62,877 nt of DNA from a virus (taxonomy: Duplodnaviria > Caudoviricetes). Location: positions 1 through 62,877 of the IMG/VR virus record IMGVR_UViG_3300046167_000556. One strand, 5' to 3'. Positions 512-62,877 of the stretch are shown here, in pieces. The position numbers and the translations under genes were made by a program. The notes under the pieces were generated by a model, which worked only from the letters and a program-made list of their open reading frames with translations, ran no database searches and was not told the DNA's origin. Each line of letters begins with the position of its first letter. Within the stretch, counting starts at the first letter, position 1.

Positions 512-547
512 TTTACAAACTGAATACGAACAACAATCGATAATATT
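512..547 (+). promoter_or_regulatory. Class I (early-type) promoter-like motif copy
   Basis: TTTACAAACTGAATACGAACAACAATCGATAATATT matches the 36-bp consensus; intergenic, upstream of ORF 573. Confidence 0.8.
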
Positions 548-5625: not shown

Positions 5626-5746
5626 CTAAACAAAAATACGCTGAGCGGCAAATTGATAAGTTTGTTAAATGGAGTTGGGAAATTAAAGGTAAAGTTAAAT
5701 ACAAAGATATAAAAGCAACTACAAACTAAATACGATATACAGTGTT

Positions 5747-29979: not shown

Positions 29980-30009
29980 AATATAATAAGATTTAATAAT
30001 TTAACAAAG

Positions 30010-32571: not shown

Positions 32572-32597
32572 GATATGATATTATAAAATTAGTAAAT

Positions 32598-43748: not shown

Positions 43749-46700
43749 CTATTGCTTCAAGCTTTCTATTTCTTTTTCTAATTCGTTTATTTTGGTAATT
43801 AACTCTTTTATAGCCGCGGTATTGATAGCGATTATATTATTGTACTCCACGCTAAGAGGATTTTCTATACCATGAATTTTATTTTTATTTTGTAGTATAG
43901 CTGTTGGTATAACTTCTTTAACTTCCTGAGCCAAGAAGCCGTACTTATCCTCCAATTTAACACTTAAATCCTTTCTGCTTGATAAATTTGATTTCCAATC
44001 ATACTTAACTGGAGCCAGCTGATTTACTATATTAATTGGGTCTTCAATTTCTTTTATATTTTCTTTAAGTCTTTTGTCTGAAAAACTGCTAGCCGCTAAG
44101 ACGCTTGTTGTGTAAGAAGATGTATCCCCGGCTACCTGTATATCTCCCCAAAATTCTGCTACATTTGTTCCTGCTGTAACATCCCCAATCGCGGCATAAC
44201 CATCATTACTTCTAACTTGTAAACCGTTTTCGGCTAATACAACTCGTTTATTAGTTCCTGAGTTTTCTCTAAATACAACTGGTTGCAGACCACTATTTTC
44301 ACGCACACTAGCATAGGCTGTAACTGTTTTAGGTCCAGTATACGATGAACTTTGTATAGTTTTTACAGTAAGGTTTTTCCACTCGTGCTTTAGCTTAAAC
44401 TGTGTAACTTTTATCTCACTGTTTATTTCTAGGTCATTAAGTGTCCCTCCTATTTGGTCCGCAGGGCCCGCAAACGTACTACCAGCAATATCATCGTAGT
44501 AAAAATTCCATGGCCCACATCCGTTTGGTTCCCCGGTGTTTTCGTTGTATGTACCACCGTAATCAACCGATATGCCACCATAACGCGAAAGCGTATTTCC
44601 AACATCTCTTTGGACATTTCTATCAGCTAGTACTTGTTTAACTTCTTTTTCAGATGTAGAACCATCTTCATTGGTGATTGTAAATGTTATTTCAGCAGTT
44701 AGTTTGTAGTCGTAAGAAACAGGTGCACTAACCCAAACGTCAGGATGCTCAGGTTCGCACGTTTGTGGATTAGTGTACCCCAGTCGATAGCCACTCGCGA
44801 CCAGGTCTAAAGGTATATCTAAACCCAACCCCCCTCTTTTTTCTGGTATAAAGCCTGTAAATTTAAATACTATAGAGCTTCCAGTTGCAGTATAAGTGGT
44901 ATTATCCTCTACACTGGCATTCGCGTATTCTACAATATCACTAAATACAATATTACCGCTGCTATTAATAGTGCTAGCAGTAGCCATACCTCCTTGATTT
45001 CCCGTAAAATTCGTATCTACATAACTGACCGGAGTTATAGACGGCAAGTTTGTAGCGGCTATAGTAATTTCGCCATAGCCAGTAGACGGGAAGCGACCGG
45101 TGGGGTCTAATACTATAGAAGGGTTACTATGTCCTGATTTTAAAGCGTTATTTGTTACAACCCAATTACCTAATTTACCAGCTTCATGTATACCGTTAAA
45201 CTTAGCAGTGCCATCCGCGTTTATAAAAAACTTCTCAGCATGTATAGATCCGTTGTCTAGGTTTACAGCCATACCTTTGTCTGAGAAACCTTCGGTAGGA
45301 GTGGTAGTATGCTGATAATTCTTACTAGATATGATACCTGTTTTAATATTGCCACCGTTTATTTCCGTGCTACCGCTTTCTTCTAAAGCGCTGAATGTTA
45401 CAACTTGGTTAAAAGCAAAAGATCTTACAGGGGGTTGAAAAACAACTCTACCAACTCCACTGTTATCCGCTATTAGCAACGGGTTGTAAATATCTACTTC
45501 ATCACCTTCTAATAAAGTTAATGTTATTTGCGGGTTGTTTCCATCATTCACGTTAACACCTGTTAAGGAGTATTTAACGAAAGTGTTTGTTAATGTAACC
45601 TCTAAGTTTTCGTAAGGAGTGTAGTCAGAACCATGCTCTTGCAGTCTTAATCTAAGTCTACCACTACCTCTTGCCCAAACCGAAACAGTACCTGAATCTT
45701 TCCAGTAAGTAGCGCTGCTTGCTTGGACTCCGTGTGTCGCAATATACGGATCTTGAGCAGCTATTGTTCTACTTATTGTATAAACCCCAGGTTCCCCTGA
45801 AGCATAGCTAACTGATGCTCCATTGCCTCTGTACCAGTCTATAGGGTCTGATAGATGATGCACCTCATTTTCTGTTACATAATAGCTAGATGACCAGTAT
45901 TGATTTGAAGCGGTACCAGCTGCCATTTCGGGAGTTTCTGTACCCCAGTACGAAGGTAAATTAATAAACGACCCTTCGTTAAAATCGAAAGCATAACTAG
46001 AGCTAGATAATTGGGTTGGAGCTGTCGCTTTACCTGATTGATAAAAAACCACTCCTTTAGCAGTTCTTCCACCGTTTGCTCCATCAAGCCCAGGTAAACC
46101 ATTTGTACCCTCTGCTCCTCTTTGGTAATATATAGCCGGAGTTGACCACTCGCCTTTACTCCATGTGTTAGTCAATAGATCTCCGTTTGAATCAAATGTT
46201 TTTGTATTATAATACCTAACACTTGATACCCATTCCGTATCATCTACACTTGCAGTTGGATCATCTGTCCACCCTGCGGGTATTGTTTCTGTCGTTCCAT
46301 TGTATGAACCAGTTTCCGGAGCCTCCGGTTGAGTGTCTGAGACTTTATATATAAAACTTACATATGCTCCATCCGTACCGTCAATACCATCAGCCCCTGA
46401 AGGCCCTTTCGGCCCATCTGCACCTGCTATAGATTTTGAAATACTATATTCGGCAGTTAATATAACATCGGACGCAGCATTAGCTGTGGCTGCTGGAATA
46501 GTGGCTTTAAATACGGCAAATCCATTATTAGCTTGCAAATCAGATATTGTATATACGCCTGAAGAATCTATAGATGCTGTGATTTCGTTTTGAGAATCAA
46601 CTTCAAAAGCACAACTTGTTGTTACGTCTGCATTGCCAACAAATACTTTAAAAGTACCTCCTGAGCCTGTATAACTTGAAACAGTCCCATCTGCGGCTGC

Positions 46701-49700
46701 TGATACAACGTGAGCTGCGTTTGTCAAAAATGCTGTTGGAGCATCACTTCCATCTTGAACTCCATATATAGTAACTTCATCTGTTGCCACAAGTGTACCA
46801 TCATCATATAGCTCTACTTCTACAACAACACTGTCCCCGCTCGCTGGTTCACTTGCATCAAGCAATGTAAAAGTTGAAGTTGATGACGCAGCATCTCCCT
46901 GAGCCTCATCATTAATATAATATCTATATGTAGCCGTGCCCTCAACGTTTTGACCTACGGCATTAAATATTATCGTATCTGTTTCGGCTCCAGCGGTAGA
47001 GTAATTTATAACGTGTTTAGATGGGTTTAACTTGACCACTTTAGCATCTGCTCCGTTTGTACCGGCTTTTGATTTAGATATACTATAAGTTTGTGTTAGT
47101 ATTACATCCTCATCTGTATTAGCGAGGCTATTTGGTACCGTAGCTTGGAATATTGCAGTACCGCTGTCGGCTGTCATTTGTGAAATAATATAAACACCCT
47201 TAGGAGTGTCATTATCACTATTATTGTCTATTGTAACACCAACACCATTTTCTTCAATTTTGGCAAATTCACATTGCGAAGTTATATCGGTAGTTCCTAG
47301 AAGTACCTTAAATGCACCTCCTGCTTCAGAATACTCTCCAGTTACATTTCCATCACTATCTGCCGAGATAGTATGTGTTGCATTGGTTAAAAAACTAGTT
47401 AAAGCACTTTCTCCTAGTATTTTTTTCCACGTGTAATCACTAAAAGTAGTAGAATCAGCTTCTGTACTATCAACATAAGTACCAATATAATCACCTACAT
47501 CTTCACCATCAGGAAGAGTAAAATTTGCACCATCATTAGAGTATTTTATATGTAAATAACTAGAAACTCCAGGGTCACCGTTATCATAATCAACTCCTTT
47601 TTCTGGAACAAACTTAGTAGCAGGTCCATATACAAAATCTCCTTCTCCATTAGTTTGTACACCGGTTCTTATATAGTAATAAGTTTCACCTGCTGCTTGA
47701 GTAGTAACCCATGTGCCCCCATCTATAGAATATTCTACTATAACATTGTTACCAGCAATTCCGTCATCATAATCCCTTCCTTTTACAGGGCTATAACCAT
47801 CTTTGACACCGTATATAGATATAGAATCTTCAGCTACTAAAGTATCATCATCATATAGTTTTACTTTAACAACAACATTTTCTCCACTAGATGGTTCATC
47901 CTCTTCTGGTAGCGTAAATGTTGATAAAAGACCTAGCTCTTGCTTTTTATTATCACCAACATAAAATTCATACCCTGCTGTACCTTCTATATTTTGAGGA
48001 GTAGTAGTAAATGTTATAGCGTCAGTTTCTACATCAATTAATTTATCGTCTACCTCATCATATACAGTGGAATAACTTATAAAGTGTTTTGAAGGACTTA
48101 GTTTAACTGTCTTTGCATTTGCTCCTGGTATTCCTTGAGGTCCTTGAATATTTCCAGCATTAACCCAAGCCGACCCATCCCATACGTACAAATTCCCATC
48201 TACTAAGTATCCATCTCCATTTGTAACCCCAGATGTTGGTAAGTCATTGACTGTGTCTACAGAGCCTATTATATTAACAGAAGTTCCATCTGTACCTGCT
48301 ATTTTATCAAAAGTAATACCCGAAACGCTGTCACCGTCTGTCCATTCTCCATTATAAAAAGCTATATGAGTAAGCGTTCCTTTCGTAGTTGACGCGTTTG
48401 TTCCAACTGTATCTTCTGCATATATAACAGTGGTTGTAAAACTAGCTGGTACATCAGACAAGTCGCCAAATGTTATTGTACCAATAGCCCCTTGTTTTAT
48501 TTTCACGACTCCATCTACAACTTCAAATGGTGCTGTACTGCTGCTATCGTTATATATTTTAAAGCTATCTGCTAAAAAGCTAACCTCTGATCCTTCGTTG
48601 TTGGCTAATAGTTTCATACCGGCAACATTGCCATTGGCATCAACTTGTAACCCATACGTGCTCTCTAAAGCGCCATCTACCCTGGCTACTACGTTCGCTG
48701 TTTCTTTTACGGCAGCATAAATACCTAAAAACTCTAATTCCGTATCATCCGCTAAATTTTCAGCTAGCGATAGTGTTATATTATTTCCATCAACAACGGA
48801 CACAAAAGTACCAGGTGTTATACCAGCTCCTTTAATCTGAAACCCCTCACGTATTGTTCCTGAAACATTATCTACCGTTATAGATGTGTTACCTGTAAAC
48901 GATACTGTTGTCTCGTTTTCTAAATATATTTCATTATCTAAAAATATGTTTTCTTGCTCTATAGCCTCAACACGCCATCTAAGATCCCTGTTTATTGTGG
49001 AATCTTGAGCAGAGTACGTGACATATTGCCCAACTTCAATATCAGAATTAGCAGCAGTGAGCACAAGTTGTTTTGTTCCTGAAACAGCTCCATCCAATGT
49101 TGCAGTGACAGGAGCGCCAGCGCTTCCGTTAACAAGAGCTGTTGCTTGAGATTGTGGCGTACCGTCTAATTTATCAATACCAACCGCAGCACTCAAGTTA
49201 TTTACATATCCTGCTGTAGCAGAATTTGCATCAACCTCGTTATTAACAGCTGTTTTAAAGTCCGCGGATAAAGATGTATTAAAATTATTATCACTATCAA
49301 AAGCACCAAGCTCAGCACCAAGATTTGAAACCTTAGAAGCAGTCGCGGAATCAGTATCGACTGTTGTTATTACAGTATCTAAATAATCAGATGATCCGCT
49401 TATTGAAAAATTATTGTTGGTATCAAACGACCCAAACTTAGCGGACATAGACGTAATTTTGCTTGCAGTAGCGCCTATTCTGCTATCGTCTGTTAGTGTC
49501 CAAATGCGAACACCAACGTTGCTAGGATCTTCGTCTACTATATATACTTTATTATTGTCATTTGTATCATACCATATTGAAGCATCCGGAATAACTTGCT
49601 CGGATGTACTATCGGAATAAATAGAAGGAGTATCATCCTGTCTATAAACATTGGGCTTAGTGCTTACTATAGCACCAAGTTCTGTTAATTTTTGAGCATC

Positions 49701-50759
49701 AGCATAATTTGTTGCTGATTCCCTTTCCATGACACTATTAGCGAAAGATTCACTAAGGTTAGTTATATTACCTTCAGCGTCATATTCCCCAAAACTACCC
49801 GCTAAGTTTGTAGCAAAAGTAGAATTATTACCAATGTCAGTCGTATGCGTTTGTAATGTCTGTGTAGCAGTCGCACTAGAATCCACCAATGACCCAATAC
49901 GAGAATCATCGGTTTCTTGCCATTCCTTCGGAGGCCCCTCTACTAACATGTATAATTTATTCCCCTCTGATGTATTATACCACAATGATCCAGCAGGCTC
50001 GTCAGTGGCAGGTATATCATTTTGCCTAAATATATTTGGTTTAGTAGAAACAGTTGAAGAGAGATTTGTTACGCTTTGCGATGTAGCGTAGTCAGTTGTG
50101 TTTTCTGTAGACATTACGCTATTTGCAAATGACTCAGACAATAACCCTGTTTCAGTATCAAAAATCCGTGAGGTAAGATTTGTTACATCAGACGTTCTTG
50201 CTAAGTTTTCTGTGTTTGAAGTGCTAAGTACATTATTAGCAAATGACTCAGAAAGAGATACTAAGTTACCGTTTTCGTCAAACGTACCTAATTCGCTTTG
50301 CAGTATGGTAAAAGATTCAGCGCTTGCCAAATCAGCTGTAGATTCGCTCATTAAACCTTGCACAGCTACTGTATCAGAATATGAAGCCAGCCTTCCGTTT
50401 ACATAGCTTTGGTAATCTGTTTGTACCTGCATCTCTATCCGACTAATAGCTCCGTTTAAATTAGCTTGTGTTTCAATTTTTAATTCGGCTAAGCCGGAAG
50501 ATATAGTATCTACGGATCCTGCGGTCGCATATCCCCCTATAGTTAAAACGTTATCTTCAATACTCATATAATCCTGAAGTTCTGAAACGAAGTCTATAGC
50601 AGATGGGTTATTACCTAATTGAATAAAGCCAGATACATAGTCCGCTACCTGACCTATCGATACAGAAAGAGTACGTTGCTCTTCTGTGGAATCTGATAAA
50701 AGCAACACATCATCTCCAGTTAAGTTTTCTACTCTAGGATAACTGTATATTGTAGCCAT
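43749..50759 (-). CDS. Long tail fibre (2336 aa) with C-terminal S74-type intramolecular chaperone
   Basis: SDKRLKENI...YGFLAQEV, Gly-X-Y stretches, YGLQVDANGNVAGMKL segment and duplicated modules. Confidence 0.9.
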   Translation of the reverse strand: MATIYSYPRVENLTGDDVLLLSDSTEEQRTLSVSIGQVADYVSGFIQLGNNPSAIDFVSELQDYMSIEDNVLTIGGYATAGSVDTISSGLAELKIETQANLNGAISRIEMQVQTDYQSYVNGRLASYSDTVAVQGLMSESTADLASAESFTILQSELGTFDENGNLVSLSESFANNVLSTSNTENLARTSDVTNLTSRIFDTETGLLSESFANSVMSTENTTDYATSQSVTNLSSTVSTKPNIFRQNDIPATDEPAGSLWYNTSEGNKLYMLVEGPPKEWQETDDSRIGSLVDSSATATQTLQTHTTDIGNNSTFATNLAGSFGEYDAEGNITNLSESFANSVMERESATNYADAQKLTELGAIVSTKPNVYRQDDTPSIYSDSTSEQVIPDASIWYDTNDNNKVYIVDEDPSNVGVRIWTLTDDSRIGATASKITSMSAKFGSFDTNNNFSISGSSDYLDTVITTVDTDSATASKVSNLGAELGAFDSDNNFNTSLSADFKTAVNNEVDANSATAGYVNNLSAAVGIDKLDGTPQSQATALVNGSAGAPVTATLDGAVSGTKQLVLTAANSDIEVGQYVTYSAQDSTINRDLRWRVEAIEQENIFLDNEIYLENETTVSFTGNTSITVDNVSGTIREGFQIKGAGITPGTFVSVVDGNNITLSLAENLADDTELEFLGIYAAVKETANVVARVDGALESTYGLQVDANGNVAGMKLLANNEGSEVSFLADSFKIYNDSSSTAPFEVVDGVVKIKQGAIGTITFGDLSDVPASFTTTVIYAEDTVGTNASTTKGTLTHIAFYNGEWTDGDSVSGITFDKIAGTDGTSVNIIGSVDTVNDLPTSGVTNGDGYLVDGNLYVWDGSAWVNAGNIQGPQGIPGANAKTVKLSPSKHFISYSTVYDEVDDKLIDVETDAITFTTTPQNIEGTAGYEFYVGDNKKQELGLLSTFTLPEEDEPSSGENVVVKVKLYDDDTLVAEDSISIYGVKDGYSPVKGRDYDDGIAGNNVIVEYSIDGGTWVTTQAAGETYYYIRTGVQTNGEGDFVYGPATKFVPEKGVDYDNGDPGVSSYLHIKYSNDGANFTLPDGEDVGDYIGTYVDSTEADSTTFSDYTWKKILGESALTSFLTNATHTISADSDGNVTGEYSEAGGAFKVLLGTTDITSQCEFAKIEENGVGVTIDNNSDNDTPKGVYIISQMTADSGTAIFQATVPNSLANTDEDVILTQTYSISKSKAGTNGADAKVVKLNPSKHVINYSTAGAETDTIIFNAVGQNVEGTATYRYYINDEAQGDAASSTSTFTLLDASEPASGDSVVVEVELYDDGTLVATDEVTIYGVQDGSDAPTAFLTNAAHVVSAAADGTVSSYTGSGGTFKVFVGNADVTTSCAFEVDSQNEITASIDSSGVYTISDLQANNGFAVFKATIPAATANAASDVILTAEYSISKSIAGADGPKGPSGADGIDGTDGAYVSFIYKVSDTQPEAPETGSYNGTTETIPAGWTDDPTASVDDTEWVSSVRYYNTKTFDSNGDLLTNTWSKGEWSTPAIYYQRGAEGTNGLPGLDGANGGRTAKGVVFYQSGKATAPTQLSSSSYAFDFNEGSFINLPSYWGTETPEMAAGTASNQYWSSSYYVTENEVHHLSDPIDWYRGNGASVSYASGEPGVYTISRTIAAQDPYIATHGVQASSATYWKDSGTVSVWARGSGRLRLRLQEHGSDYTPYENLEVTLTNTFVKYSLTGVNVNDGNNPQITLTLLEGDEVDIYNPLLIADNSGVGRVVFQPPVRSFAFNQVVTFSALEESGSTEINGGNIKTGIISSKNYQHTTTPTEGFSDKGMAVNLDNGSIHAEKFFINADGTAKFNGIHEAGKLGNWVVTNNALKSGHSNPSIVLDPTGRFPSTGYGEITIAATNLPSITPVSYVDTNFTGNQGGMATASTINSSGNIVFSDIVEYANASVEDNTTYTATGSSIVFKFTGFIPEKRGGLGLDIPLDLVASGYRLGYTNPQTCEPEHPDVWVSAPVSYDYKLTAEITFTITNEDGSTSEKEVKQVLADRNVQRDVGNTLSRYGGISVDYGGTYNENTGEPNGCGPWNFYYDDIAGSTFAGPADQIGGTLNDLEINSEIKVTQFKLKHEWKNLTVKTIQSSSYTGPKTVTAYASVRENSGLQPVVFRENSGTNKRVVLAENGLQVRSNDGYAAIGDVTAGTNVAEFWGDIQVAGDTSSYTTSVLAASSFSDKRLKENIKEIEDPINIVNQLAPVKYDWKSNLSSRKDLSVKLEDKYGFLAQEVKEVIPTAILQNKNKIHGIENPLSVEYNNIIAINTAAIKELITKINELEKEIESLKQ

Positions 50760-52411: not shown

Positions 52412-52720
52412 TTATTTTTTAGTTGTTTTCTTCTTTCTCTTACGATCACCGTTTTTAAATGTATCTCTATTGCTAGATATAGAAACTCTTTTAGTATTAC
52501 CTACTTTACCATTAACATGATGTATGTCCGATGTACTATTTTGCCCTATCCTCTGGTTTTCTGCCTTTTTCTCTTTTCTCTTGTGTTGAGATGTTGATCT
52601 TCCACTGCCAGATTTAGAGCATGTACCTGTTTCTGGGTTCCACACCCAGCCTTTGGCATAACATAAGTCTCTTTCTGCTTTTCTAGCTCTTGCGCCGGGT
52701 GATAGTTTTTGTTTTCCCAT
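52412..52720 (-). CDS. Small basic HNH-like protein
   Basis: DIHHVNG...N...SSNR; first gene of the late arm. Confidence 0.55.
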   Translation of the reverse strand: MGKQKLSPGARARKAERDLCYAKGWVWNPETGTCSKSGSGRSTSQHKRKEKKAENQRIGQNSTSDIHHVNGKVGNTKRVSISSNRDTFKNGDRKRKKKTTKK

Positions 52721-52726
52721 ACCTTA

Positions 52727-52754
52727 TATACTCACACGCGATACCGTATATTTA
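52727..52754 (-). promoter_or_regulatory. Class II promoter at start of late arm
   Basis: TAAA-N15-GTGAGTATA. Confidence 0.65.
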
Positions 52755-52766
52755 CATGCTCTCATA

Positions 52767-52815
52767 ATGCGACGTTAGCCTCTTACTATTATATATAACT
52801 ACCTATTGTCGCACT
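52767..52815. repeat. ~50-bp palindromic element, copy 1 (others at 54250-54298 and 60730-60780)
   Basis: TGCGAC-NN-TAGCC, AT-rich core, CTATTGTCGCA. Confidence 0.8.
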
Positions 52816-53204
52816 GCGGATCTTTAGAATTTTTAATAAAAAATTTTTTGTTAGATACAGGGAACTATGGGGTTATATACTATATTCTACTGACATAAAA
52901 AAATAATAAACCCGTTTTGTTTTGACCCAGTCCCCGTGTGTTTTTACGCTTTCGGGATAGGCTTTTGCCTTTCGTATGGTTTTCCTGCAATATGTTGAGG
53001 TATTCGGGACTTGTACTGCTGCGGCGTGCGCTTGATCCTGTGCTGGTCTGATCTGGTCCTGGTCTCTGATGCTTGTGCTTGACAACCTCCCTTGATGGAA
53101 GCGGAGCGTAGCAAAGCGTATAGCATTTACAAAGTAGATACGAAGTATATTTGATAATATAAGTGAATAAAGAAATTAATAATAATAATTTAAAAATAAT
53201 AAAA

Positions 53205-53348
53205 ATGTCTTTAACAAAATCAATTAACATTACTTCAAAAGATTTCAACAACATTGAAAAAGTATTTCATACTTATCTTCAAAATAATCCAAAAGATCAA
53301 TCAACATTAAAAACAATACAATCTATAATTAATCAATCCATAGATTAA
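53205..53348 (+). CDS. Early hypothetical protein (47 aa)
   Basis: ATG after an A-rich leader downstream of the first motif. Confidence 0.6.
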   Translation: MSLTKSINITSKDFNNIEKVFHTYLQNNPKDQSTLKTIQSIINQSID

Positions 53349-53463
53349 ACCTCCCCTCGAGGAGCCATCGAAATCAAAGTATAATTACAAAGTAGATACG
53401 AAGTACTACTGATAATATAAATGTAACTAAGTAAATAATAATAATAACTAAATAAATTAAATT

Positions 53464-53784
53464 ATGACTAATCAAGAATTAATGACTCAAGCGATCGCAA
53501 ACATGACTAACGAAGAGAAAGCAAAGATCTTTCCACCAATCGAACGTAAGAACTTCGTAGTAAGAAAATCATGGCTCGGACGAAACCAAGTAATCAAATT
53601 CGTCAACAACAAAAATCAAGTTGTAACGTACAACCACGATACCATACTTGAAGCGATGTTACCTAAACTAAGTATAATGCCATGTTGGATCAAACGAGGA
53701 TACTGGTCTCAATCAACTAACTTACCAACCAATGTTAGGCATCTAGCCGAGATCATTGATCAAGAAGTCGAGGTAACTAAATAA
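53464..53784 (+). CDS. Early hypothetical protein
   Basis: 106-aa ORF after the second motif. Confidence 0.75.
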   Translation: MTNQELMTQAIANMTNEEKAKIFPPIERKNFVVRKSWLGRNQVIKFVNNKNQVVTYNHDTILEAMLPKLSIMPCWIKRGYWSQSTNLPTNVRHLAEIIDQEVEVTK

Positions 53785-53872
53785 CCTCCCTTGATGGAAA
53801 CCCCTAATCCATCTTCCTTTACAAACTGAATACGAATAGTAACTGATAATATATACGAATAACAAATAAATT

Positions 53873-54022
53873 ATGAATACACGATCAAAACAAACCGAAT
53901 ACTTAAAAAATATTATAACCGATCTGGAAAATAAAAACGATAGAATCGCATTACTATGGACTTTAGCAAATAGTAAGAAAATAAACAGAAGACAGTTCAA
54001 AGAATTAATTAACAAACTATAA
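53873..54022 (+). CDS. Early hypothetical protein (49 aa)
   Basis: Manually read ORF after the third motif. Confidence 0.6.
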   Translation: MNTRSKQTEYLKNIITDLENKNDRIALLWTLANSKKINRRQFKELINKL

Positions 54023-54106
54023 TAACATGAAAAAAGTAATCACGAAAGTAATAAACGAATTAAAACTAATGCGCTAAAGCAATTCATTCAATAAAACAAT
54101 AATACT

Positions 54107-54247
54107 ATGTACGAAAAAAAGATTATAACAAGACAAGACGGATCAACATACGAATCATACTTTTGGAAAACAGTTGCTGATCTGCAATGGACCGAAGCTC
54201 AAGAGCAGATGCAAAAAGCTATCGATCAGTTCGGAACCTCATCTTAA
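54107..54247 (+). CDS. Early hypothetical protein (46 aa)
   Basis: MYEKKIITRQDGSTYESYFWK... Confidence 0.55.
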   Translation: MYEKKIITRQDGSTYESYFWKTVADLQWTEAQEQMQKAIDQFGTSS

Positions 54248-54249
54248 TA

Positions 54250-54298
54250 ATGCGACAGTAGCCTACTATTATAATATATAACAGGCTATTGTCACACT
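54250..54298. repeat. Palindromic element, copy 2
   Basis: ATGCGACAGTAGCCT...AGGCTATTGTCACACT. Confidence 0.8.
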
Positions 54299-54837
54299 GT
54301 TTAATTTTCCCAGCCGTTACCTAAATAAAGTAACGAATATGGAGCCTGATCTTGAAATATGATCGGAAGAGTAGACTCCGTCCTACACCAAAGTGTATAG
54401 CATCACCTAACTTTCAGCGATCTATTAGATTTTCTAGTGAAAATTACCGTTTATTTGATGTATAGCATTTACAAAGTCGACACGAACACCTTTTGATAAT
54501 ATATATGAATTAAAATACTAACAATAACTACTAAAAACTAACTAAATGATCGTTTTAAACCGAATAACCTAGGAGAGATATTACTACCGACTACTTAAAG
54601 TTGATGAAAGGTGAAATAACTAACGCTGAATTCGAAGAAATTGCAGGTATACCAAGGGATTTGGACCTAGAGAAGAGGTGAGTTACAACTACAACACTAT
54701 TCGATCGATGAAATAAAAGTACACCTATTTGAATTTACAAACTAAATACGATAGAGTATTGATAATAATAGTGTAACAAACAATAATTAATAACTAAGTT
54801 GACTATATACTATGTCCACTGTAAAATACCAATAAAT

Positions 54838-55613
54838 ATGGAGCAATACGAAGAATTACACCAAAAGTTGCAAGAAGGAACTATAACACCTAACGAACTT
54901 AAATTACTAAATCACTTAGCTTTCGGAACTCCCTTCATGAACTCTAACAACAAAGGAACTAAAGTAAAATACTATTAAAAATGGAAAATAACCTACTAAA
55001 CTATATTGATTTTACATCAATAACCGAAGATTTCGATCTAAAACACGGAGATATATCACCTTATCAAACCGTAAAACTAGAAGAATTGTTAAAACAATTT
55101 ATTGACCAAAATAGTGAAGGATTTATAAAATAACTATATATGAAAGAATTTTACGAATTTTCAAGTGAATTAGAGTATGAAGAGTATGCACAATTAATGT
55201 GGTTAATCAATAATAATAAAGTATAATATGGAACTATCAAACACGGAAACAAATGTACTATTGGTCGCGTTAGACCATATGGAAGAAGAAATACAAGACC
55301 TAATGCAAGAACGTGAACTACGCGGTGATATGTGGCAAGAACGGTTAAATGCGTGTGAATCTATAAGAACTAAAATTAAACAACTATGATGACAATGAAA
55401 GAAGCGTGCGAATACGTTAAAAACCAAAAAGTAGCGAATGCTATACGTCGTAACAATGTCGTTGCGATCAACGGATCTTGTAGTGGAGTAACGGAAAAAC
55501 AGTACAAAAGTATTAAGACCAAAGCAAAAGGTGCGGGGAGTCGCGGTAGAAAGCACTCACACACCGCTCTATGGAATCACTACAACGAACCAGTAAAACA
55601 ATTTACAAACTAA
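54838..55613 (+). CDS. Run of early microproteins (54838-54978, 54981-55133, 55228-55389, 55386-55613)
   Basis: Closely packed ATG ORFs after the motif at 54734. Confidence 0.6.
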
Positions 55614-55661
55614 ATACGATTACCGATCGATAATATATATGAACTTAAAATAATAAAAGAT

Positions 55662-56402
55662 ATGAAAGTATACTCAAATGACATCCCGACCATCAAGTAC
55701 CTAAAATCAAACGAAATTAAATTAGACGGTAGAAAATACAAAGGTTATAACGTCGGTGAATTACCATCTCGCTTCGCTTTTATCTACGACGACAACGAAG
55801 AACAAGACGGAATTACAGAGTGGTTCAACCACAAAGGATTAACTTATGTACCTAAAAACTAATGAATACTATGAAAACAAATGATAAATTAAATGCGGTA
55901 GAACATATATGGTATGCCGAATCCGATCGGTGGATCTACATCGAACGATATGCAAGTGGTTACTTAGGTTTAAACTTCATGCAAGGTGACGAGTACGAAC
56001 ACTTTAAAATTAAGTGGTGCGAGATCGATAGAGGTATGAGTGAATTCTATGACACTATGAAAAACGATCTTTTGAAATTAAGAGTTGAAATGAGTGAGTT
56101 AGAGTTTATCGACAAAGTAATGTGGATCTACTTCGAAGCTAAAGTAAAATATGACGAAAATAAATAATGAGATATATATACACTAAACGTAAATGGAAAA
56201 CAACATGGAAAATAAATTAGAAGAAATAGCACAAGGAGTGGCCGATGTCACACTAGAATTAATGGAAGATAGTGTTGATTGGCAACTAGCGGATTTCCCT
56301 CAAGACGGCGACGAATACGGTGCTATACACTCTAAAGTAATGCACCTTGCAATCAAGCAAATGTATTTACAAACTAAACACGATAGCGGATCGATAATAT
56401 AA
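55662..56402 (+). CDS. Three early hypothetical proteins (55662-55862, 55862-56167, 56193-56402)
   Basis: ORF track; cassette between two motif copies. Confidence 0.7.
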
Positions 56403-56522
56403 TTGAATAACGATAAGACTCAACAAGTTATAATCTACGAACCCAGCGGCACAGCGGTGGTAGTTAGTTATAAATGTGAGTAATAGGCGACAGATACGAT
56501 TAACGATCACGTAATAGCCGGC

Positions 56523-56634
56523 AACTAGGTATGGAGCGCTAGTGGTACAAGCACCTTTGAATACTCTTCAAAGCCAGAGACCCGAAGCAACACTACTGAC
56601 GAGTATGAGGGTTCGATTCCCTCGCTAGTTACTA
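56523..56634 (+). ncRNA. Atypical tRNA-like RNA
   Basis: Perfect T arm GAGGG-TTCGATT-CCCTC, acceptor AACTAG/CTAGTT, D-like arm GCT-AGTGGTACA-AGC and hairpin CTTTGAA/TTCAAAG, all in an ORF-free gap. Confidence 0.6.
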
Positions 56635-56651
56635 ATTTAAAATTAAATATT

Positions 56652-57335
56652 ATGAGTAAAATTAAAAAAGTAGATGAAGTTGTAGATTTTAGTGTGTTCA
56701 CTAAATTTACTAAAGACTTAGGATTGTTTCAAGTCAATGCAAGTGTATGGAGTATGGTGTCTCAAGATTGCACCAATAGTCACGACATATCCGACATTGA
56801 ATTAGATTTTTCAATAGACAATAAAAGATGCAAATACAACGGCTTTAAAGAGATCTATGAAAAACTATACGGTATAAACACTTTCAACCAATTTACAGCC
56901 GAATTAATGGCGGAATTTGAAAAAGCATATTTTAAACAAACAACCTATAAAACTAAATAATATGAGTAAGACTAAATTTAACGGATTCGAAAAGTATTTT
57001 ATCCAAACAGCGTTGAGACACGCTATTGAAGAAGCAGAAAAAGATGTGTTAGCTGCCGAAGCTGACGGTAAAAGATCTATATATGCACCGGGTTATTTTA
57101 CTATGGTGGGTAATGAGATCATTGACAAAGTAAATAGTATGACACTTAAAAAATACCAAGACTAATGAGAAACGAACTTAAACAAGTGTTAATGGAACGC
57201 GACGGTATGACCGGTATTGAGGCAGATCTAGAGATCAAAGATATACGATCTAGAGTGTATAAAGGCGAAGACGCTGAAACAATATTATTCGAAGAGTACC
57301 GATTAGAACCTGATTACTTATGGGATTTAATATAA
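56652..57335 (+). CDS. Three early hypothetical proteins (56652-56960, ~56962-57165, 57165-57335)
   Basis: Coupled ORFs. Confidence 0.7.
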
Positions 57336-57396
57336 TTTACAAACTAAATACGAACAACTATTGATAATATAATTGTAACAAACTAAATATAATAAT

Positions 57397-58554
57397 ATGA
57401 AAACATTACTAGAACGCCTTAAACCTGAAATTAAACTAAGATTAGAAGCAAACACCTCTCAGTACACTAGTACTGTTGATAATATCTTTAAAAACCTTTC
57501 ATCAAAAGTTTTTTATCAAGATCTAACTATGAGTGAAATAAGTACGCTATACACATTCTCTGACATAACGTTATTGAAAACGTCTATATGGGATCTAAAA
57601 CACGGCGATAACCTATTTATAACAGAGTATGATGACTAAACAAGATATACATAACCGAGCAAGTGATAAAGCTTTCGCTAAAATGTCTATGCTTACATTC
57701 GAAATAACTGACAACAAAACATCGTTAATGACCGGCAACTACGGCGGCGATATAACTGAAGAAGAAATGAGAATGATCTTAGATAGTAATAAAGTAGAGT
57801 TAAAAGTGTGGAATTACATTGCTGAATTAATAGAAAAAAATGAATAAAACTAAATATATAACAGACGAATTGATCAACGAACGTTTAGAAGCTAAAGGTT
57901 TCGGTGATAAACAAACAGAAGACGACGAGGTTGCTAGAACAAACGTATTAAACCATTATGGCGTTGAGCTAACTAGCGACTGGACTAGTAGAGCATCATA
58001 TTATATATATGAAGAAACTACTAAAGACGGTTACTCTGTGTATGTAGCTACCGACGACACTGACAACATAAGTGTATGTGAAGATATATACTACTATGAT
58101 AGTGATCTCGCTGATGTACTTGAAGAACAAATCAAGTATTCCAACGGTGATGAAGATTACCCTGAGATAATATATGTAGACGATCTTTACCAAGACTTTA
58201 TTGACGGAGCTATTGAGAATTTATTTATATATTTATCAGAAAAGTTTGAAGAAGAAATTATTGACGAATTAATAGATGAAGGTTATGAGCAACAAGACTA
58301 AAGAACAAACAGTACCTAAATGGTTTAAAGGTATGATCTACGATCAAGGTGAAGAAGTTACAAACCCTTTTAGCGGTCAATGCTATACACTTACCGGTAT
58401 CGAGTTGTCTATGTACGACTTTATTCTCGGATGCCAATACATAATGGAGGTCGCACCTAAAACAGTGACACCCAAGCAAGTAAACGACTTTAACAAAGCG
58501 TTAAGCTGGTTTCGTAAAAATAATACCGAAGCATATATGGTGCTACTCGATTAA
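57397..58554 (+). CDS. Four early hypothetical proteins (57397-57639, 57629-57847, 57840-58301 acidic, ~58285-58554)
   Basis: Overlapping ORFs between two motif copies. Confidence 0.7.
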
Positions 58555-58699
58555 TTTACAAACTAGACACGATCAATAACTGATAATATATTTGTATGAA
58601 CCCAATAAATTTAATGCTACTGGCTGTATTTGCTCTAACTTTTATAGGTCCTATATACCTAGACTGGCAAATGCGAAAAAAAGATAACGAAGAATAATT

Positions 58700-59305
58700 A
58701 TGAATTTACTAACACAAAACTCTAAACTTAAAAAAACATCAAAAGTACTCGGGCTTCGGGTCTTTAACTTTGGTATTCCTGCCTACAAATCGTCAAGTGG
58801 GAAACTAACGTGCCCAATGGCTGACGGATGCATAAAATTCTGTTATGCCAAGAAAGGAGCCTACATCTGGAGTAATGTAAAACCGGCGTTTGAAAACCGT
58901 TATGAACTTAGCAAGACAGATGACTTTGTCGATGCGATGAATAACGAAATACGTAAGAAGAAACCTGATTACGTGAGAGTCCACGATAGCGGAGATTATT
59001 ACTCTACTGCGTATCTAAAAAAGTGGATCAAGATTGCAAACGACAATCCCGACGTGCGGTTTTACAGTTACACCAATATGATCGATATGATGCTAAAAGC
59101 TTCATTGCCAAGTAATTATGATATAATATTTTCTGATTCAGGAAAGCAAAAACATTTAATAGATGAAAGAAAACACAGACACACCAAAATATTTTCTAGT
59201 CATAGCGATCTTATTTCTGCTGGCTATACTGACGCTTCATCTACTGATCTAATGGCTACTAGATGGTTTAATGATACAAATAAAGTAGGGTTAGTATTTC
59301 ACTAA
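58700..59305 (+). CDS. Gene product 88-like protein
   Basis: TCPMADGCIKFCYA, VRVHDSGDYY, FYSYT. Confidence 0.75.
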   Translation: MNLLTQNSKLKKTSKVLGLRVFNFGIPAYKSSSGKLTCPMADGCIKFCYAKKGAYIWSNVKPAFENRYELSKTDDFVDAMNNEIRKKKPDYVRVHDSGDYYSTAYLKKWIKIANDNPDVRFYSYTNMIDMMLKASLPSNYDIIFSDSGKQKHLIDERKHRHTKIFSSHSDLISAGYTDASSTDLMATRWFNDTNKVGLVFH

Positions 59306-59698
59306 AATAATAAATTATGCACAAAGAACCTTTAAAAATTACATTAGAGTTTTATAATAAAGAAATCTCTACACAAATAGATCATTCAGATTTAACTCTT
59401 GAAGAGCTCCATGAGTTATGGCTAGAAATAGTTAAAGCTATGGGTTACCACCATAAAACAATAAAAGAATTTTATGAGTAATAATTTAGTATTAAAACAA
59501 ATTAACAATAACGTAAATGATAAACGCAGTATGGAGAGAGAAGAATTAATAAAATTAATAATGGAACGTATCTACACTAGACGCATATACGCTGAGAAAT
59601 TAGCTGACGACATATTGCGTTTATCTAGTTTTAAGCACAGTAAATAATTTACAAACACGAACAATAAACGATAATATAATAAACAAAAACAAAAACTT

Positions 59699-59917
59699 AT
59701 GAACAACAATTTTAAAGCGATCTACCAATTCGACTCAAGTGCTATAGTTAACGCTGTGTACAATTACGAAACTCAAAAGTTAACAATTACTTTACCATCA
59801 GGTATATACAACTACGTAAGCGTACCCTATCATACGTTTAGCGGTTTGATTGAAGCTAGATCTAAAGGTAAATTCTTTAACAAATTTATTAAAAACAAAT
59901 TTAACTTCACAAACTAA
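59699..59917 (+). CDS. KTSC domain protein
   Basis: SSAI...Y...L.I...Y.Y..VP...ARSKGKFFNKFIK. Confidence 0.85.
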   Translation: MNNNFKAIYQFDSSAIVNAVYNYETQKLTITLPSGIYNYVSVPYHTFSGLIEARSKGKFFNKFIKNKFNFTN

Positions 59918-59918
59918 T

Positions 59919-60383
59919 ATGAATATATTTTATCTATCACACTGTCCTAAAAAAGCCGCACAAGTACAGTATAACAAGCATGTAGTCAAAATGATTCTTG
60001 AAACTGCACAATTGTTATGTACTGCGCATCACGAACTCGGTACGTCAATCGATATACCTTATAAAGCTACACATAAAAATCATCCGTCAGCTATATGGGT
60101 TAGATCATCTGCCGAAGCATATATGTGGGCATACGAACATATGTTAGCTCTAGGAGCTGAGTATACTAAACGTTATGGCAAAGAACATTTGACTATCGCT
60201 AAATGCCGTGAAGTGCTATACACTTTACCTAATGGTATATCTGACGATGCATTTGCTCAACCTCCTCAGTGTATGCCTGACGAATATAAAGCTGAATGTA
60301 GTGTTGATGCCTACTGGAATTATTATGAAAATGAAAAGCACACGGTGCGAAATAGTAACGAACAACTAATAACAAGATCATAA
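59919..60383 (+). CDS. Pyrimidine-dimer DNA glycosylase-like (DenV-like) protein
   Basis: MNIFYL...KHVVKMILETAQLL, HKNHPSAIWVR, EYTKRYGKEH, PPQCMPD. Confidence 0.75.
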   Translation: MNIFYLSHCPKKAAQVQYNKHVVKMILETAQLLCTAHHELGTSIDIPYKATHKNHPSAIWVRSSAEAYMWAYEHMLALGAEYTKRYGKEHLTIAKCREVLYTLPNGISDDAFAQPPQCMPDEYKAECSVDAYWNYYENEKHTVRNSNEQLITRS

Positions 60384-60662
60384 ATGACTGAAGATCAAAT
60401 AAATAAGTTAGCTGAGATCATAGCTGTAAAAGTTATGGATAAACTAGTAGCTAAGCAACAAGAGTGGGATAAACAATTCTACGAAGAATTTGAAGAGGTT
60501 AGAAATATTAAACCTAAGTTAAGCGATAAAGCAAAACTAGAAATGAAAATAAAAGAACTAAAAGCGTTACGAAATTCATATATAATGAATGAGAAGTATG
60601 AATTATTGTCTGACGTGGAAGCAGATCTAATTAAACTAGAAAAAGAATTATATAACCTGTAA
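60384..60662 (+). CDS. Coiled-coil protein with UVR-like C-terminus
   Basis: NEKYELLSDV...IKLEKE. Confidence 0.5.
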   Translation: MTEDQINKLAEIIAVKVMDKLVAKQQEWDKQFYEEFEEVRNIKPKLSDKAKLEMKIKELKALRNSYIMNEKYELLSDVEADLIKLEKELYNL

Positions 60663-60729
60663 AAAAAATATTTATTAAAAATAAATATATAGAAACCCGA
60701 AAACAAACAACTGAAGCATCGATTACGAA

Positions 60730-60780
60730 AGTGTGACGATAGCTTGTTAATTATTTAATAGTAAGAAGCTAATGTCGCAT
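60730..60780. repeat. Palindromic element, copy 3 (inverted), overlapping the ATG of the HTH gene
   Basis: AGTGTGACGATAGCTTG...AAGCTAATGTCGCAT. Confidence 0.8.
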
Positions 60781-61392
60781 TATACAAGAGATACATCTTA
60801 TTTAGAACGTCACAAAATAATATATAGACGAGATCCTACGACTGATAAACCCACAGATATATTTGAATGGGGTTATTATTACGAAGAGGGTACTCGACAA
60901 TGTTATGCATTGTTTAATTCTAAAGCTAAAATAAACACATATAGAGGACTTAAATGGCATTTGTATGTATTATGGTACTTGAATCCTCAAATGGATCAAG
61001 AAGGCTTTGAAGCACTGTCTAAATATATATGTAATAAGAAATGTGGTTTTGTTACTTTTAAAGTTTCAGAACAGTTATTACAGAGCATGATATACGACGT
61101 ATCTTTAATGGATTTGGAAACTCCACCTCCTAATAAGTTGCGTAAAGTAATATTCAAAGACTTTACCGGTCTTGAAATGCGACAAAAGCTTGCTATAGTA
61201 GGTACGTTAGTAGGAAGATCTAAAATATCTAATAGTGAAATTTACGATGCAATGATTTTGATTAATCACGCTGACGAAAAAATAACTATGACAAAGCTAT
61301 CAAACGTTTTAGGTTGTTCTACTAGAACTATATATAGAAATATGAGTAATGAACTTAAAAAAGAAAAAGAACTACTAAACCAACAATTATGA
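60772..61392 (+). CDS. C-terminal HTH DNA-binding protein
   Basis: ITMTKLSNVLGCSTRTIYRNM. Confidence 0.75.
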   Translation: MSHYTRDTSYLERHKIIYRRDPTTDKPTDIFEWGYYYEEGTRQCYALFNSKAKINTYRGLKWHLYVLWYLNPQMDQEGFEALSKYICNKKCGFVTFKVSEQLLQSMIYDVSLMDLETPPPNKLRKVIFKDFTGLEMRQKLAIVGTLVGRSKISNSEIYDAMILINHADEKITMTKLSNVLGCSTRTIYRNMSNELKKEKELLNQQL

Positions 61393-61485
61393 CACAAGAA
61401 TTCAACGAATGGATGGCGAAGATAGGTAATATACACTATGCTAATGACAATTTAATGGCAAAAGCATTTAATAGGATAGAAGAAC

Positions 61486-62247
61486 ATGAAAAAATATAAC
61501 ATACAAAACTATGTAAGATACAAAGCTGATGTTAAACAATCTATTGCTCGGCTTGAAGGTAAATTTTGGGACGAGTATACTAAAGAAGAACTAATTATAA
61601 AGTTTTTACCTTTAACAGAGAACATAGCTAGAAAGTTTTCAACTTCTGATCAAGCATCAGGAGTTTTAAGTATTAATGACTTAATACAAGAAGGTTCTAT
61701 AGGTTTAGTTAAAGCTATAGGTAAACTAGATATGAACAGAGTAATTGAATCTAACGATCCTGAGAAGACATTAAAATCATTCTTAGCTAAACGTATTAAA
61801 GGATCAATTAGACGCGCTATAGACATTAATAGAGGTAATATTCGTATACCCGAGTACAAGTTAAATGAGATAAGAAAAGACTTTGGTAAAGATAAAGCTT
61901 TAGTAGCTATGTTTTTTAATAGTATATTTTTGAGTATTGATATACCAGCTAATGAAGATGACGATAACTTTGCGTTTCAAATACCAGATGAATCTGAACC
62001 TTATAATATAGCGTTGATGAATGTTTACTTAACTAGCTTATGTAAAAAGTATTTAAGCGATAATGAATATGAAGTACTAAGGCTTAGCTATGGGCTTGAC
62101 TGCGAAAAACTACCAGGCAAAGAAATAGCTGAGGTATTAAATATGACTGGCCCTAGTGGTTATGTAAGAGTTTCAGAGCTTAAAAAGCAAGCTGTGAATA
62201 AATTAATCGACTCTGTTGACCACACGCAAGTGCTTGACTTCCTTTAG
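61486..62247 (+). CDS. Phage-encoded sigma70-family sigma factor
   Basis: Region 2 (LPLTENIARKF, DLIQEGSIGLVKAI, IKGSIRRAI), IRIP, region 3 LSID and region 4 HTH (VLRLSYGL...KEIAEVL...RVSELKKQAVNKL). Confidence 0.92.
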   Translation: MKKYNIQNYVRYKADVKQSIARLEGKFWDEYTKEELIIKFLPLTENIARKFSTSDQASGVLSINDLIQEGSIGLVKAIGKLDMNRVIESNDPEKTLKSFLAKRIKGSIRRAIDINRGNIRIPEYKLNEIRKDFGKDKALVAMFFNSIFLSIDIPANEDDDNFAFQIPDESEPYNIALMNVYLTSLCKKYLSDNEYEVLRLSYGLDCEKLPGKEIAEVLNMTGPSGYVRVSELKKQAVNKLIDSVDHTQVLDFL

Positions 62248-62266
62248 ATTAAAGTAAAAATAATTG

Positions 62267-62294
62267 TAAAACCCTGTTTGTATATGTAATTATA
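62267..62294 (+). promoter_or_regulatory. Class II promoter for recombination/replication operon
   Basis: TAAA-N15-GTAATTATA immediately after the sigma gene. Confidence 0.7.
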
Positions 62295-62320
62295 TATATA
62301 AGCGATTTAATTAAGAACGA

Positions 62321-62834
62321 ATGAACATAAACGAAAAATTAGCGACCATCCAAACGGAGTTCAAATCGAAAAAAAGTAGATTTAACTCATTCGGCAAGTA
62401 CAACTTCAGATCCGCCGAAGACATTCTTGAAGCAACAAAACCCTTTCTATTAAGGTTAGGAGTATCAGTAACAGTCAGTGAAGAATTAATTGACACAAGT
62501 GACTTTCCAATTATTAAGTCAACAGCTACAGTAACCGATGGCAAAGATGCTATACATGCTACAGCTATTGTCGGTGTAGACTTATTACAAAAAGGAATGC
62601 AAATGCCGCAAAAGTTCGGTAGTGCTTCTAGTTATGGAAAAAAGTATGCACTTGGAAATTTATTTCTAATAGATGACACTCAAGATGCCGATCACGGTAA
62701 AGCTGAAAAAGCTAAACCTAAATTAGAGGGTCAAGCGTCTAGACAAAGCTAAAGCTTTCCTAAAAGCAGGGGGAAGTTTAGATGCTATTAAAGGTAAATA
62801 TGAAATACCTGCTGCAACTTTAAAAACCTTATGA
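62321..62834 (+). CDS. ERF-family single-strand annealing protein (3' frameshift)
   Basis: FNSFGKYNFRSAEDILEA, GSASSYGKKYALGNLFLIDD. Confidence 0.85.
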
Positions 62835-62877
62835 CAAGTAAAGAAAAAAAAGAAATCTTAAAAAGATTAGAAAGTGA
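62831..62877 (+). CDS. 5' end of a gene (probably the exonuclease continued at base 2)
   Basis: MTSKEKKEILKRLES runs off the window; ATGA overlap with the ERF gene. Confidence 0.6.
   Translation, partial: MTSKEKKEILKRLES

Follow-up and report, generated by a model that had tools for sequence, protein, structure and literature searches.

A repeated tripartite motif as the very probable early promoter of an uncultured clade of flavobacterial phages

The window analyzed here, namely the whole 62,877-bp IMG/VR virus record IMGVR_UViG_3300046167_000556 (Caudoviricetes), is complete or nearly so (98% by CheckV, ~33% G+C), and in it a motif composed of the blocks TTACAAA, ACGA, and GATAATA recurs at the borders of early gene groups. 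From 53.2 kb to its end, the + strand encodes small open reading frames (ORFs) followed by a GP88-family protein, a DNA-binding protein, a 206-aa protein, a sigma factor, and ERF, and from position 1 the same strand encodes a PDDEXK nuclease, a primase-helicase, thymidylate synthase, MazG, and ribonucleotide reductase. On the − strand, the large terminase, the portal, structural proteins, and a 2336-aa ORF are found between 9.8 and 52.7 kb. The large terminase is 65% identical to that of MW202828.1 and 31–44% identical to those of Flavobacterium (elemo), Cellulophaga, and Tenacibaculum phages; also, Shine-Dalgarno sequences are not evident by eye at the start codons, and a host in Flavobacteriia therefore fits this phage. 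Near-identical DNA was not hit in cultured phages by megablast.

When both strands of the window were searched for TTACAAA-N6-ACGA-N9-GATAATA with up to three mismatches, 11 matches were found, ten of which had no mismatch and were all on the + strand (Table 1); the sole remaining match, on the − strand with three mismatches, is unrelated. By chance, 0.24 matches are expected at this threshold, and none of 100 shuffled sequences gave 11. A preliminary description of this DNA had reported ten co-oriented copies of the motif between 53126 and 59678, each at the border of a gene group. Nine copies in that range are indeed exact, but the tenth, at 59649, is short by 5 nt, and a full copy at 513–545, which is outside the range, had been overlooked. 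The common orientation and the block structure were reproduced in all of the ten exact matches, and so was the placement. Where an upstream ORF is nearby, its stop falls between −37 and +35, counted from the start of the motif, and the next ATG ORF begins 2–65 nt past the predicted start point of transcription; the copies at 54469 and 56367 are exceptions in that no ORF is called over the next 331 and 247 nt, respectively (the 331-nt stretch contains a 25-aa ATG ORF). The shortened copy at 59649 keeps the spacing of ACGA-N9-GATAATA intact, gives TTTACA-16-GATAAT when counted from 59648, and heads the operon running into the sigma gene.

Table 1. Motif copies and candidate regulatory genes in the window; the +1 positions are predictions.
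Feature	Position	Strand	Upstream context	Predicted +1	Next ORF	Remark
Motif copy 1	53127..53159	+	GCGGAGCG/GTATAGCAT	G53165	53205	GTAGAT subtype
Motif copy 2	53385..53417	+		G53423	53464	next ORF is family 1
Motif copy 3	53819..53851	+		G53857	53873	
Motif copy 4	54469..54501	+	GTATAGCAT	G54507		next listed ORF after 331 nt
Motif copy 5	54735..54767	+		G54773	54838	
Motif copy 6	55603..55635	+	ORF stop (55613) inside motif	G55641	55662	
Motif copy 7	56367..56399	+	ORF end 56402	G56405		followed by ~247 nt of non-coding DNA
Motif copy 8	57337..57369	+		G57375	57397	
Motif copy 9	58556..58588	+		G58594	58596	full TATATTTG overlapped, incidental
Shortened copy	59649..59676	+		A59682	59699	5 nt gone between TTACAAA and ACGA
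Eleventh copy	513..545	+	sigma, ERF, and PDDEXK genes	A551	573	primase-helicase after next ORF
Half copy CTACAAACTAAATACGA	5719..5737	+				upstream block ACAAACTAAATACGA exact; no GATAATA block
Conserved 206-aa protein, family 5	60772..61392	+				just upstream of sigma in relatives; weak C-terminal helix-turn-helix match
Sigma-70-family factor, 253 aa	61486..62247	+				regions 2 and 4; candidate recognizer of the motif

The motif is shared by a clade of related phages. A scan of IMG/VR with the exact pattern gave at least 120 stretches, many of them on contigs of 58–72 kb, with at least 190 instances in these. In all of the 32 near-complete (at least 90%) related IMG/VR genomes, 5–22 copies with up to two mismatches were found, and these were confined to a single strand in each genome; the 22 copies of one genome (G004) include a terminal duplication of the contig, and the duplicate piece was dropped for the set of 299 copies used below. 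The exception among the 33 large contigs is G025 (completeness 18%), with a single match; a reversed control pattern likewise matched once there and not at all in the 32 genomes. At up to three mismatches, furthermore, the early pieces contain 309 forward versus 3 reverse matches. Among the 299 copies from the 33 genomes, 295 are intergenic or overlap the ends of ORFs, and the other four lie inside called ORFs; the stop of the upstream ORF is mostly at −40 to +10 of the motif start and often inside the motif. In most relatives, a motif also precedes the family 1 gene (53464 in the window). Within each array, degeneration of the upstream block is strongest at the first promoters, with ACGA-N9-GATAATA still retained there. 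We also noticed that a GTATAGCA(T) box precedes the first promoters of the array in the window (53085–53126 and 54455–54468) as well as in G007, G008, G011, G016, G028, and G033, and that most of these genomes add GC-rich GCGGAGCG-type repeats at the first promoters, the later copies having no such context.

Outside this clade, the motif was found in none of five cultured relatives selected by their large terminase, and the sigma factor was found in none of the five either, although the empty protein search had no positive control and is weak proof. In the closest of them, MW202828.1, an unrelated palindrome, GTGTCGTTAACGACAC, recurs in 14 exact copies (16 when counted at 70% identity or above) and looks like a different, lineage-specific early signal, perhaps a hairpin; no ortholog of the sigma factor of the window was found in this phage. 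These copies span the early region (L260 3738–18089, corresponding to 43.7–58.1 kb of MW202828.1), and several are located ~20–25 nt before an ATG. In ElemoA, no repeated early motif was found. Given the dissimilar palindrome in the one and no such motif in the other, the identity of the early motif follows the lineage of the phage but not the phylum of the host. In the literature searched, a 15-mer and a 14-mer of the motif were unmatched, the 10 listed of 44 papers with a 10-mer were unrelated by title, and nothing on this clade was found among reports on promoters or sigma factors of flavobacterial phages.

The anatomy of the motif was derived from 162 independent IMG/VR instances with enough flanking sequence among the matches listed, in which the positions of the blocks are fixed by the search pattern. 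Beyond the searched blocks, conservation extends to CTAAAT in the gap between TTACAAA and ACGA, to a weak TG leading into GATAATA, and to TAAAT past it. Also, position 38 is a purine in 158 of the 162 instances, in 298 of the 299 copies from the 33 genomes, and in 11 of 11 copies in the window. The motif had been described as 36 bp long, but its conservation reaches further, up to this purine 5 nt past GATAATA. With position 38 as +1, GATAAT is placed at −12 to −7, ACGA at −25 to −22, and TTACAAA at −38 to −32. An ATG is found exactly at position 38 in 43 of the 299 copies, and the distance from position 38 to the next called ORF peaks at 0 (30 cases) and at 17–23 nt. In Flavobacterium psychrophilum, the median length of the 5′ untranslated region is 24 nt, and 5.5% of mRNAs are leaderless (PMC9723704). 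Because a start codon at position 38 is usable only when transcription begins there or earlier, the register of the promoter is fixed.

We thus consider it very likely that these repeats serve as early promoters in this phage and throughout the large uncultured clade of flavobacterial phages to which it belongs. The promoter geometry is suggested by the register of GATAAT, ACGA, and TTACAAA, by the co-orientation and the intergenic placement, by the purine at +1, and by the spacing to the start codons; together with the conservation throughout the clade, these features give good indirect support to the promoter function that had been proposed for the repeats, and it is from them that we infer the promoter activity and the exact +1. 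Transcription would start at the purine 6 nt past GATAAT, the resulting mRNAs would be leaderless or equipped with leaders of ~20 nt, and the copies of the motif would split the early region into short co-oriented transcription units. On the + strand of 52700–62877, only one terminator-like hairpin was found, which is inside an ORF (58747) and more than 150 nt away from any copy of the motif. With no terminators between the units, each unit would add to the read-through from upstream.

Among promoter classes, the sigma-70 consensus does not fit the motif, nor does that of flavobacterial sigma-A. The preliminary description was correct in noting that the 21 nt between TTTACA and GATAAT are too long for sigma-70; indeed, hexamers spaced by 17 ± 1 bp are lacking in 10 of the 11 copies in the window, the shortened copy (59648, 16 nt) being the exception. 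A generic scan for sigma-70 promoters gave 49 sites versus 47.5 expected. The early promoters of T4 and T5 and the A1 promoter of T7 are similar to the motif in that they occur in many near-identical copies, are conserved past the core hexamers, and have a GATAAT/GATACT-like −10 element with a TTTACA-like upstream hexamer; unlike the motif, however, they fit the host consensus with the spacing of 17 ± 1. As to the flavobacterial class, the sigma-A box TAnnTTTG occupies −12 to −5 (PMC9723704), and TTG-N20-TAnnTTTG is the form of the four middle promoters that have been mapped in Cellulophaga phage phi14:2 (10.1101/2020.03.07.982082). The motif has GATAATA(T/A) at −12 to −5 and CAA, not TTG, at −35 to −33. 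In the GATAATA register, only two of the six specified positions of the flavobacterial −7 box agree (A−11 and T−7), and the strictly conserved G−12, A−8, and A−6 of the motif stand against T−12, T−8, and T−6 of the host box. A host-like TATATTTG overlapping some copies had been raised as a caveat; the overlap does exist but is incidental, as the full TAnnTTTG in an overlapping register is found in only 2 of the 299 copies. A dual promoter with an embedded host −7 box was also considered and dropped as too weak (at least five of six positions in 63 and all six in 2 of the 299 copies). Sites of TTG-N19-21-TAnnTTTG numbered 25 in the 656 kb of early strand from the 33 genomes, with 16 outside called ORFs and one of these 16 within a motif array, and none was found in the early region of the window. 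The middle promoters of phi14:2 share with the motif that they form a repeated tripartite promoter motif in a Flavobacteriaceae phage (10.1101/2020.03.07.982082). The idea that phi14:2 has the same motif was nonetheless rejected; it has no copy, its single match with three mismatches equals the control, and its own sites are of the host type.

A partial likeness is found to the sigma-28 (FliA) class, for which the promoter in Pseudomonas aeruginosa has GCCGATAA at −15 to −8 and TCTAAAG at −36 to −30 (PMC12784957). The motif has GATAA at the predicted −12 to −8, i.e., in the sigma-28 register, and an A-rich element near −35, but the former coincidence is forced by the search and dependent on the predicted +1. 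At −15 to −13, furthermore, the motif has a/t, T, and a weak G in place of GCC and thus lacks the extended −10 element of this class. Its upstream block, (T)TACAAA(C), is offset by 1 nt, with TACAAAC at −37 to −31 agreeing with TCTAAAG at four of seven positions, and ACGA at −25 to −22 is an extra element. An N4-type hairpin promoter does not match, with no inverted repeat visible in the consensus.

What, then, would read this motif? We tentatively prefer recognition of the motif promoters by the host core RNA polymerase with the phage sigma factor, a reading that appears plausible, if not quite probable. The phage sigma, not host sigma-A, would direct the host core enzyme, and the sigma and the motif would constitute an orthogonal pair; the first dose of sigma would come from weak host recognition of the motif promoters or from delivery with the DNA. 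An ortholog of the sigma (47–73% identity) is encoded in 32 of the 33 motif-bearing large contigs and in all 32 of those at least 90% complete. In the gene-order strings of the relatives, it is usually at the distal end of the motif array, and every full-length match listed is on the motif strand (30 genomes with a single such match and G015 with two). A database search with the sigma of the window gave only matches of ~25% identity, which were in Firmicutes phages. The joint absence of the motif and the sigma from the five cultured relatives, the unrelated early palindrome of MW202828.1, and the predicted sigma-28-like register of GATAA also speak for this reading. The sigma factors of F. psychrophilum are only sigma-A, sigma-54, and seven extracytoplasmic function (ECF) factors (PMC9723704), and none of these fits the motif; a group-3 sigma of the host is therefore not expected. 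The phage sigma is small like those of group 3. It retains region 4, in keeping with the upstream blocks of the motif. In the consensus of the orthologs, region 2.4 is RIKGAI, as in Aquifex FliA, and in the window it is RIKGSI, while SigA has IRQAI; also, the best solved match to the single sequence is FliA (1rp3, E 6.9e-8). Going further, the whole early program might run on a private pair of a small group-3-like sigma and sigma-28-like promoters in a host phylum without such a sigma (to our knowledge, FliA is not expected in Bacteroidota), which we regard as rather unlikely. If this were true, the sigma would enter with the DNA, or leaky host recognition would prime its self-amplification, and the genes behind the motif in two metagenome-assembled genomes (MAGs; see below) would be host genes switched on only by infection.

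Several points weigh against the phage sigma as the reader. The main objection is that its gene is inside the motif-driven region, at the distal end and behind copy 59649 in the window, so that the first dose of sigma is unexplained; a canonical host promoter ahead of the sigma gene was not found. A profile of 15 orthologs matched the SigA and FliA structures equally (E ~1e-10), and the phage sigma is thus not specifically FliA-like. The co-occurrence of the sigma and the motif may reflect shared ancestry only, and the +1 is itself a prediction from sequence. Known phage sigma factors, furthermore, mostly serve middle or late genes (e.g., SPO1 gp28 and T4 gp55). The middle promoters of SPO1 read by gp28 are alike in having a phage-wide non-host consensus, a phage gene of the sigma-70 family, and co-oriented promoters heading short gene groups. 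They differ in that the promoters of the present clade head the earliest genes together with the sigma gene, in a Bacteroidota host and with a sigma dependence that is proposed here; the consensus and the −38/−25/−12 geometry of the motif are also new. The true target of the sigma could be a distinct late element, TTATATTATAT(C/T)ATG, and the copies of the motif in the chromosomes of the two MAGs are easier to explain if the host polymerase reads the motif.

These last two points bring in the alternative that the unmodified host holoenzyme with sigma-A reads the motif upon entry of the DNA and that the phage sigma then switches transcription to later genes, as in SPO1 and T4, which we take as a serious possibility without expecting it. 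The array spans the small-ORF region beside the divergent junction, with sigma, ERF, and replication genes at its end, and the early strand has no other promoter candidate, so that something must read the motifs first. The late element, present in the window and in each of the 30 relatives inspected, could then be the target of the sigma, but it has no conserved −35-like block, and yet the sigma retains region 4. In addition, the RNA polymerase of Cellulophaga baltica transcribes in vitro from T7 A1, a sigma-70-type promoter with GATACT as its −10 element (10.1101/2020.03.07.982082). Against sigma-A, nonetheless, stand the poor agreement with the flavobacterial −7 box (PMC9723704) and the CAA at −35 to −33 described above, a −35-like TTTACA that is 4 bp too distant for the sigma-70-type geometry, and the wholly different early motif in the relative without the sigma. 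The exact copies before small ORFs on long chromosomal contigs of the two Flavobacteriaceae MAGs fit host recognition, but the motif is not a general promoter class there and was discarded as such; past the one or two exact copies, the matches with two mismatches equal those of the reversed control. Alternatively, the upstream block TTACAAAcTAAATACGA might be the site of an activator or repressor from the phage or the host, such as the helix-turn-helix protein at 60772–61392, placed like a MotA box above a minimal −10 element; the motif would then be a regulated promoter that owes its specificity to a DNA-binding protein and not to a sigma. The 17-nt block is indeed long and nearly contiguous for a contact with region 4 of a sigma, is present alone in the half copy at 5719–5737, and has its TTACAAA end shifted by 5 nt relative to the −10 element in copy 59649 with ACGA-N9-GATAATA intact; also, the helix-turn-helix gene is conserved beside the sigma gene in relatives. 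We regard this role as improbable, however, given a consensus without the dyad symmetry (by eye) expected for most helix-turn-helix dimers, a weak match of the protein (E 7e-4, below the Pfam cut-off), and the first promoters, whose upstream block is the most degenerate while ACGA-N9-GATAATA is retained. The bootstrapping problem, moreover, is the same as with the phage sigma. The 206-aa protein is a possible co-regulator.

The repeats might also act otherwise than as promoters. The preliminary description had proposed, in addition to a promoter role, cassette shuffling as in the promoter early stem-loop (PeSL) elements of T4-type phages; if shuffling were the main role, the repeats would be recombination sites with a secondary promoter activity. 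Units bounded by motifs have a stable first gene and variable distal genes, and the series of gene families over the 33 genomes is > 1, > 9, > 13, > 14, > 6/15, 10-5-sigma-ERF-nuclease, > 12-primase (>, motif). Some units are replaced as a whole between motifs (G024 versus G020 and G004 versus G010), promoters are at times gained or lost between unchanged genes, and L126, the most closely related fragment, has a motif exactly where its homology to the window breaks (57176). The phage also encodes ERF and the PDDEXK nuclease. In gene-order comparisons, which are not phylogenetically independent, a shared downstream gene kept its upstream neighbor in 411 of 3474 cases at motif junctions versus 1741 of 5947 elsewhere (chi-square p 4e-84), but a shared upstream gene kept its downstream neighbor about equally often (411 of 1822 at motifs versus 1741 of 7176 elsewhere, p = 0.14); a first gene that is conserved and operon ends that vary would account for this asymmetry, with no exchange through the motif being required. 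The end points of homology between relatives were also located (120 unique ones in the early zones, at 80% identity or more over at least 250 bp). Near motifs, 33 of the 120 were found, with motif windows taking up 10% of the zone length, and blocks of homology tend to start at the 5′ edge of the motif, most often at −10 to 0. When counted per site, however, 33 end points for 226 motifs (0.146) are not significantly more than 47 for 465 other junctions (0.101; odds ratio 1.52, p = 0.099). For the check proposed earlier, i.e., whether breakpoints in relatives fall on the motif, the enrichment is thus present by length but not significant per site. PeSL elements are alike in being repeated early promoters among small variable ORFs, with some indels and replacements between relatives bounded by the motif (PMC2839356, PMC4122927), whereas the adjacent stem-loop terminator is absent here; with the upstream stops mostly at −40 to +10 of the motif start, there is no room for a hairpin. 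As recombination alone also leaves the strict strand, the start-codon spacing, and the purine at +1 unexplained, we consider it very improbable as the main role and the PeSL-like mechanism as not borne out. The motifs mark the boundaries of units, but that they drive the exchange is not supported. A role in RNA is hardly credible, whether in processing, in enhancing translation, or as a sequence associated with starts within a long early transcript. It would be consistent with the fixed short distance ahead of start codons, with ATG at position 36 in 102 and TGTAA at 37–41 (as in ATGTAA) in 85 of the 299 copies, and with the long read-through RNA that is plausible when terminators are absent between units. 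In the 43 copies with the ATG of a gene at position 38, however, the whole motif precedes the coding sequence, and its action there would be confined to DNA or a 5′ leader. Also, the three blocks have no self-complementarity by eye, one copy drives the non-coding stretch 56405–56651, and the arrangement of the blocks, with a −10-like GATAAT behind a free spacer of 9 nt, is that of a promoter.

The motif thus provides a ready map of transcription units throughout a clade of abundant uncultured flavobacterial phages in marine and freshwater environments. It departs from all promoter classes described for Bacteroidota and travels with a phage sigma; the takeover of transcription by a phage under an unusual primary sigma therefore becomes testable. 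If the sigma does read the motif, the two together would form a compact, orthogonal system for expression in Bacteroidota, and this would be one of the rare phage sigmas in control of the earliest genes. As to genome evolution, the promoter and the first gene form a stable unit, and the ends of operons turn over.

The late element TTATATTATAT(C/T)ATG emerged from an alignment of the sequences preceding a single late gene. It directly adjoins the start codon of a late gene for 276 aa, past a variable hairpin, in the window and in the relatives inspected (L266–L295), and is a candidate for a late, possibly leaderless promoter unlike the host consensus. The positions in the window are 29977–29991 (−) and 32569–32583 (−), which take in a similar site ahead of another late ORF. 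In a de novo search for late promoters by counts of 8-mers, nothing but a palindromic element stood out. This palindrome of ~50 nt (GCGAC/GTGAC-n-TAGCC ... GGCTA-n-TGTCAC with an AT-rich center) is located in the divergent late/early gap (52745–52815), inside the early region (54247–54300), and over the start of the 206-aa helix-turn-helix gene (60735–60790), and may be an operator. By BLAST, it was also found in L126, L076, and L047/L154 (the last two being loci on one and the same stretch, G013), and the 8-mers of its half sites are present in 8–9 of 96 upstream regions on the late strand.

The chromosomal copies of the motif in the two Flavobacteriaceae MAGs are exact and include the 20-nt leader (L180 4273–4305 in G034; L256 and L257, at 160149 and 141676 of G035:C2). 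They precede small paralogous ORFs opening with MKTKITIATLLFGFTVNA, an N-terminus resembling by eye a signal peptide; these ORFs encode 60 and 80 aa, and that in G034 encodes 27 aa owing to a deletion. The finding suggests capture of the promoter from a phage, or the reverse. The idea of a small toxin was dropped, given that the 27-aa ORF is a deletion remnant of such 60- and 80-aa paralogs, and a seemingly widespread conserved RNA at this locus turned out to be the 3′ end of an ordinary protein gene with no match in Rfam. Another contig in a Flavobacteriaceae MAG bin, G036:C7 (117,301 bp), has motif arrays at 51.1–55.4 kb and 113.7–116.6 kb and resembles ~1.9 copies of a ~62.5-kb phage of this clade, i.e., a concatemer or a mis-binned phage; as to the host, it is a weak hint.

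A giant virion RNA polymerase was considered for the 2336-aa ORF (43749–50759) and rejected, as this ORF is repeat-rich and fiber-like by eye. A Pfam scan of the ORFs of 1433, 1016, 641, 454, and 430 aa gave no RNA polymerase domain, and a DxDxD-type motif is absent from these five as well as from the 2336-aa ORF, the latter being outside the Pfam scan. Sampled words of 53000–60000 were found at 5–36% in contigs from 19 runs recorded as RNA and one guessed to be RNA, which is not evidence of expression. The non-coding stretch 56405–56651 behind motif copy 7 gave no call by ARAGORN or Rfam; its 3′ end resembles the T arm and acceptor of a tRNA (GAGGGTTCGATTCCCTC GCTAGTT). Among 40 early pieces from relatives, 14 have one ordinary tRNA gene each (Arg-TCT, Met, Gln, Pro, or Asp) on the motif strand. 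Finally, several short ACGT/CGCAT-ATAAA-like repeats are found at 4695–4791, between the MazG-like gene and the next ORF, and may be iterons or another class of promoter.

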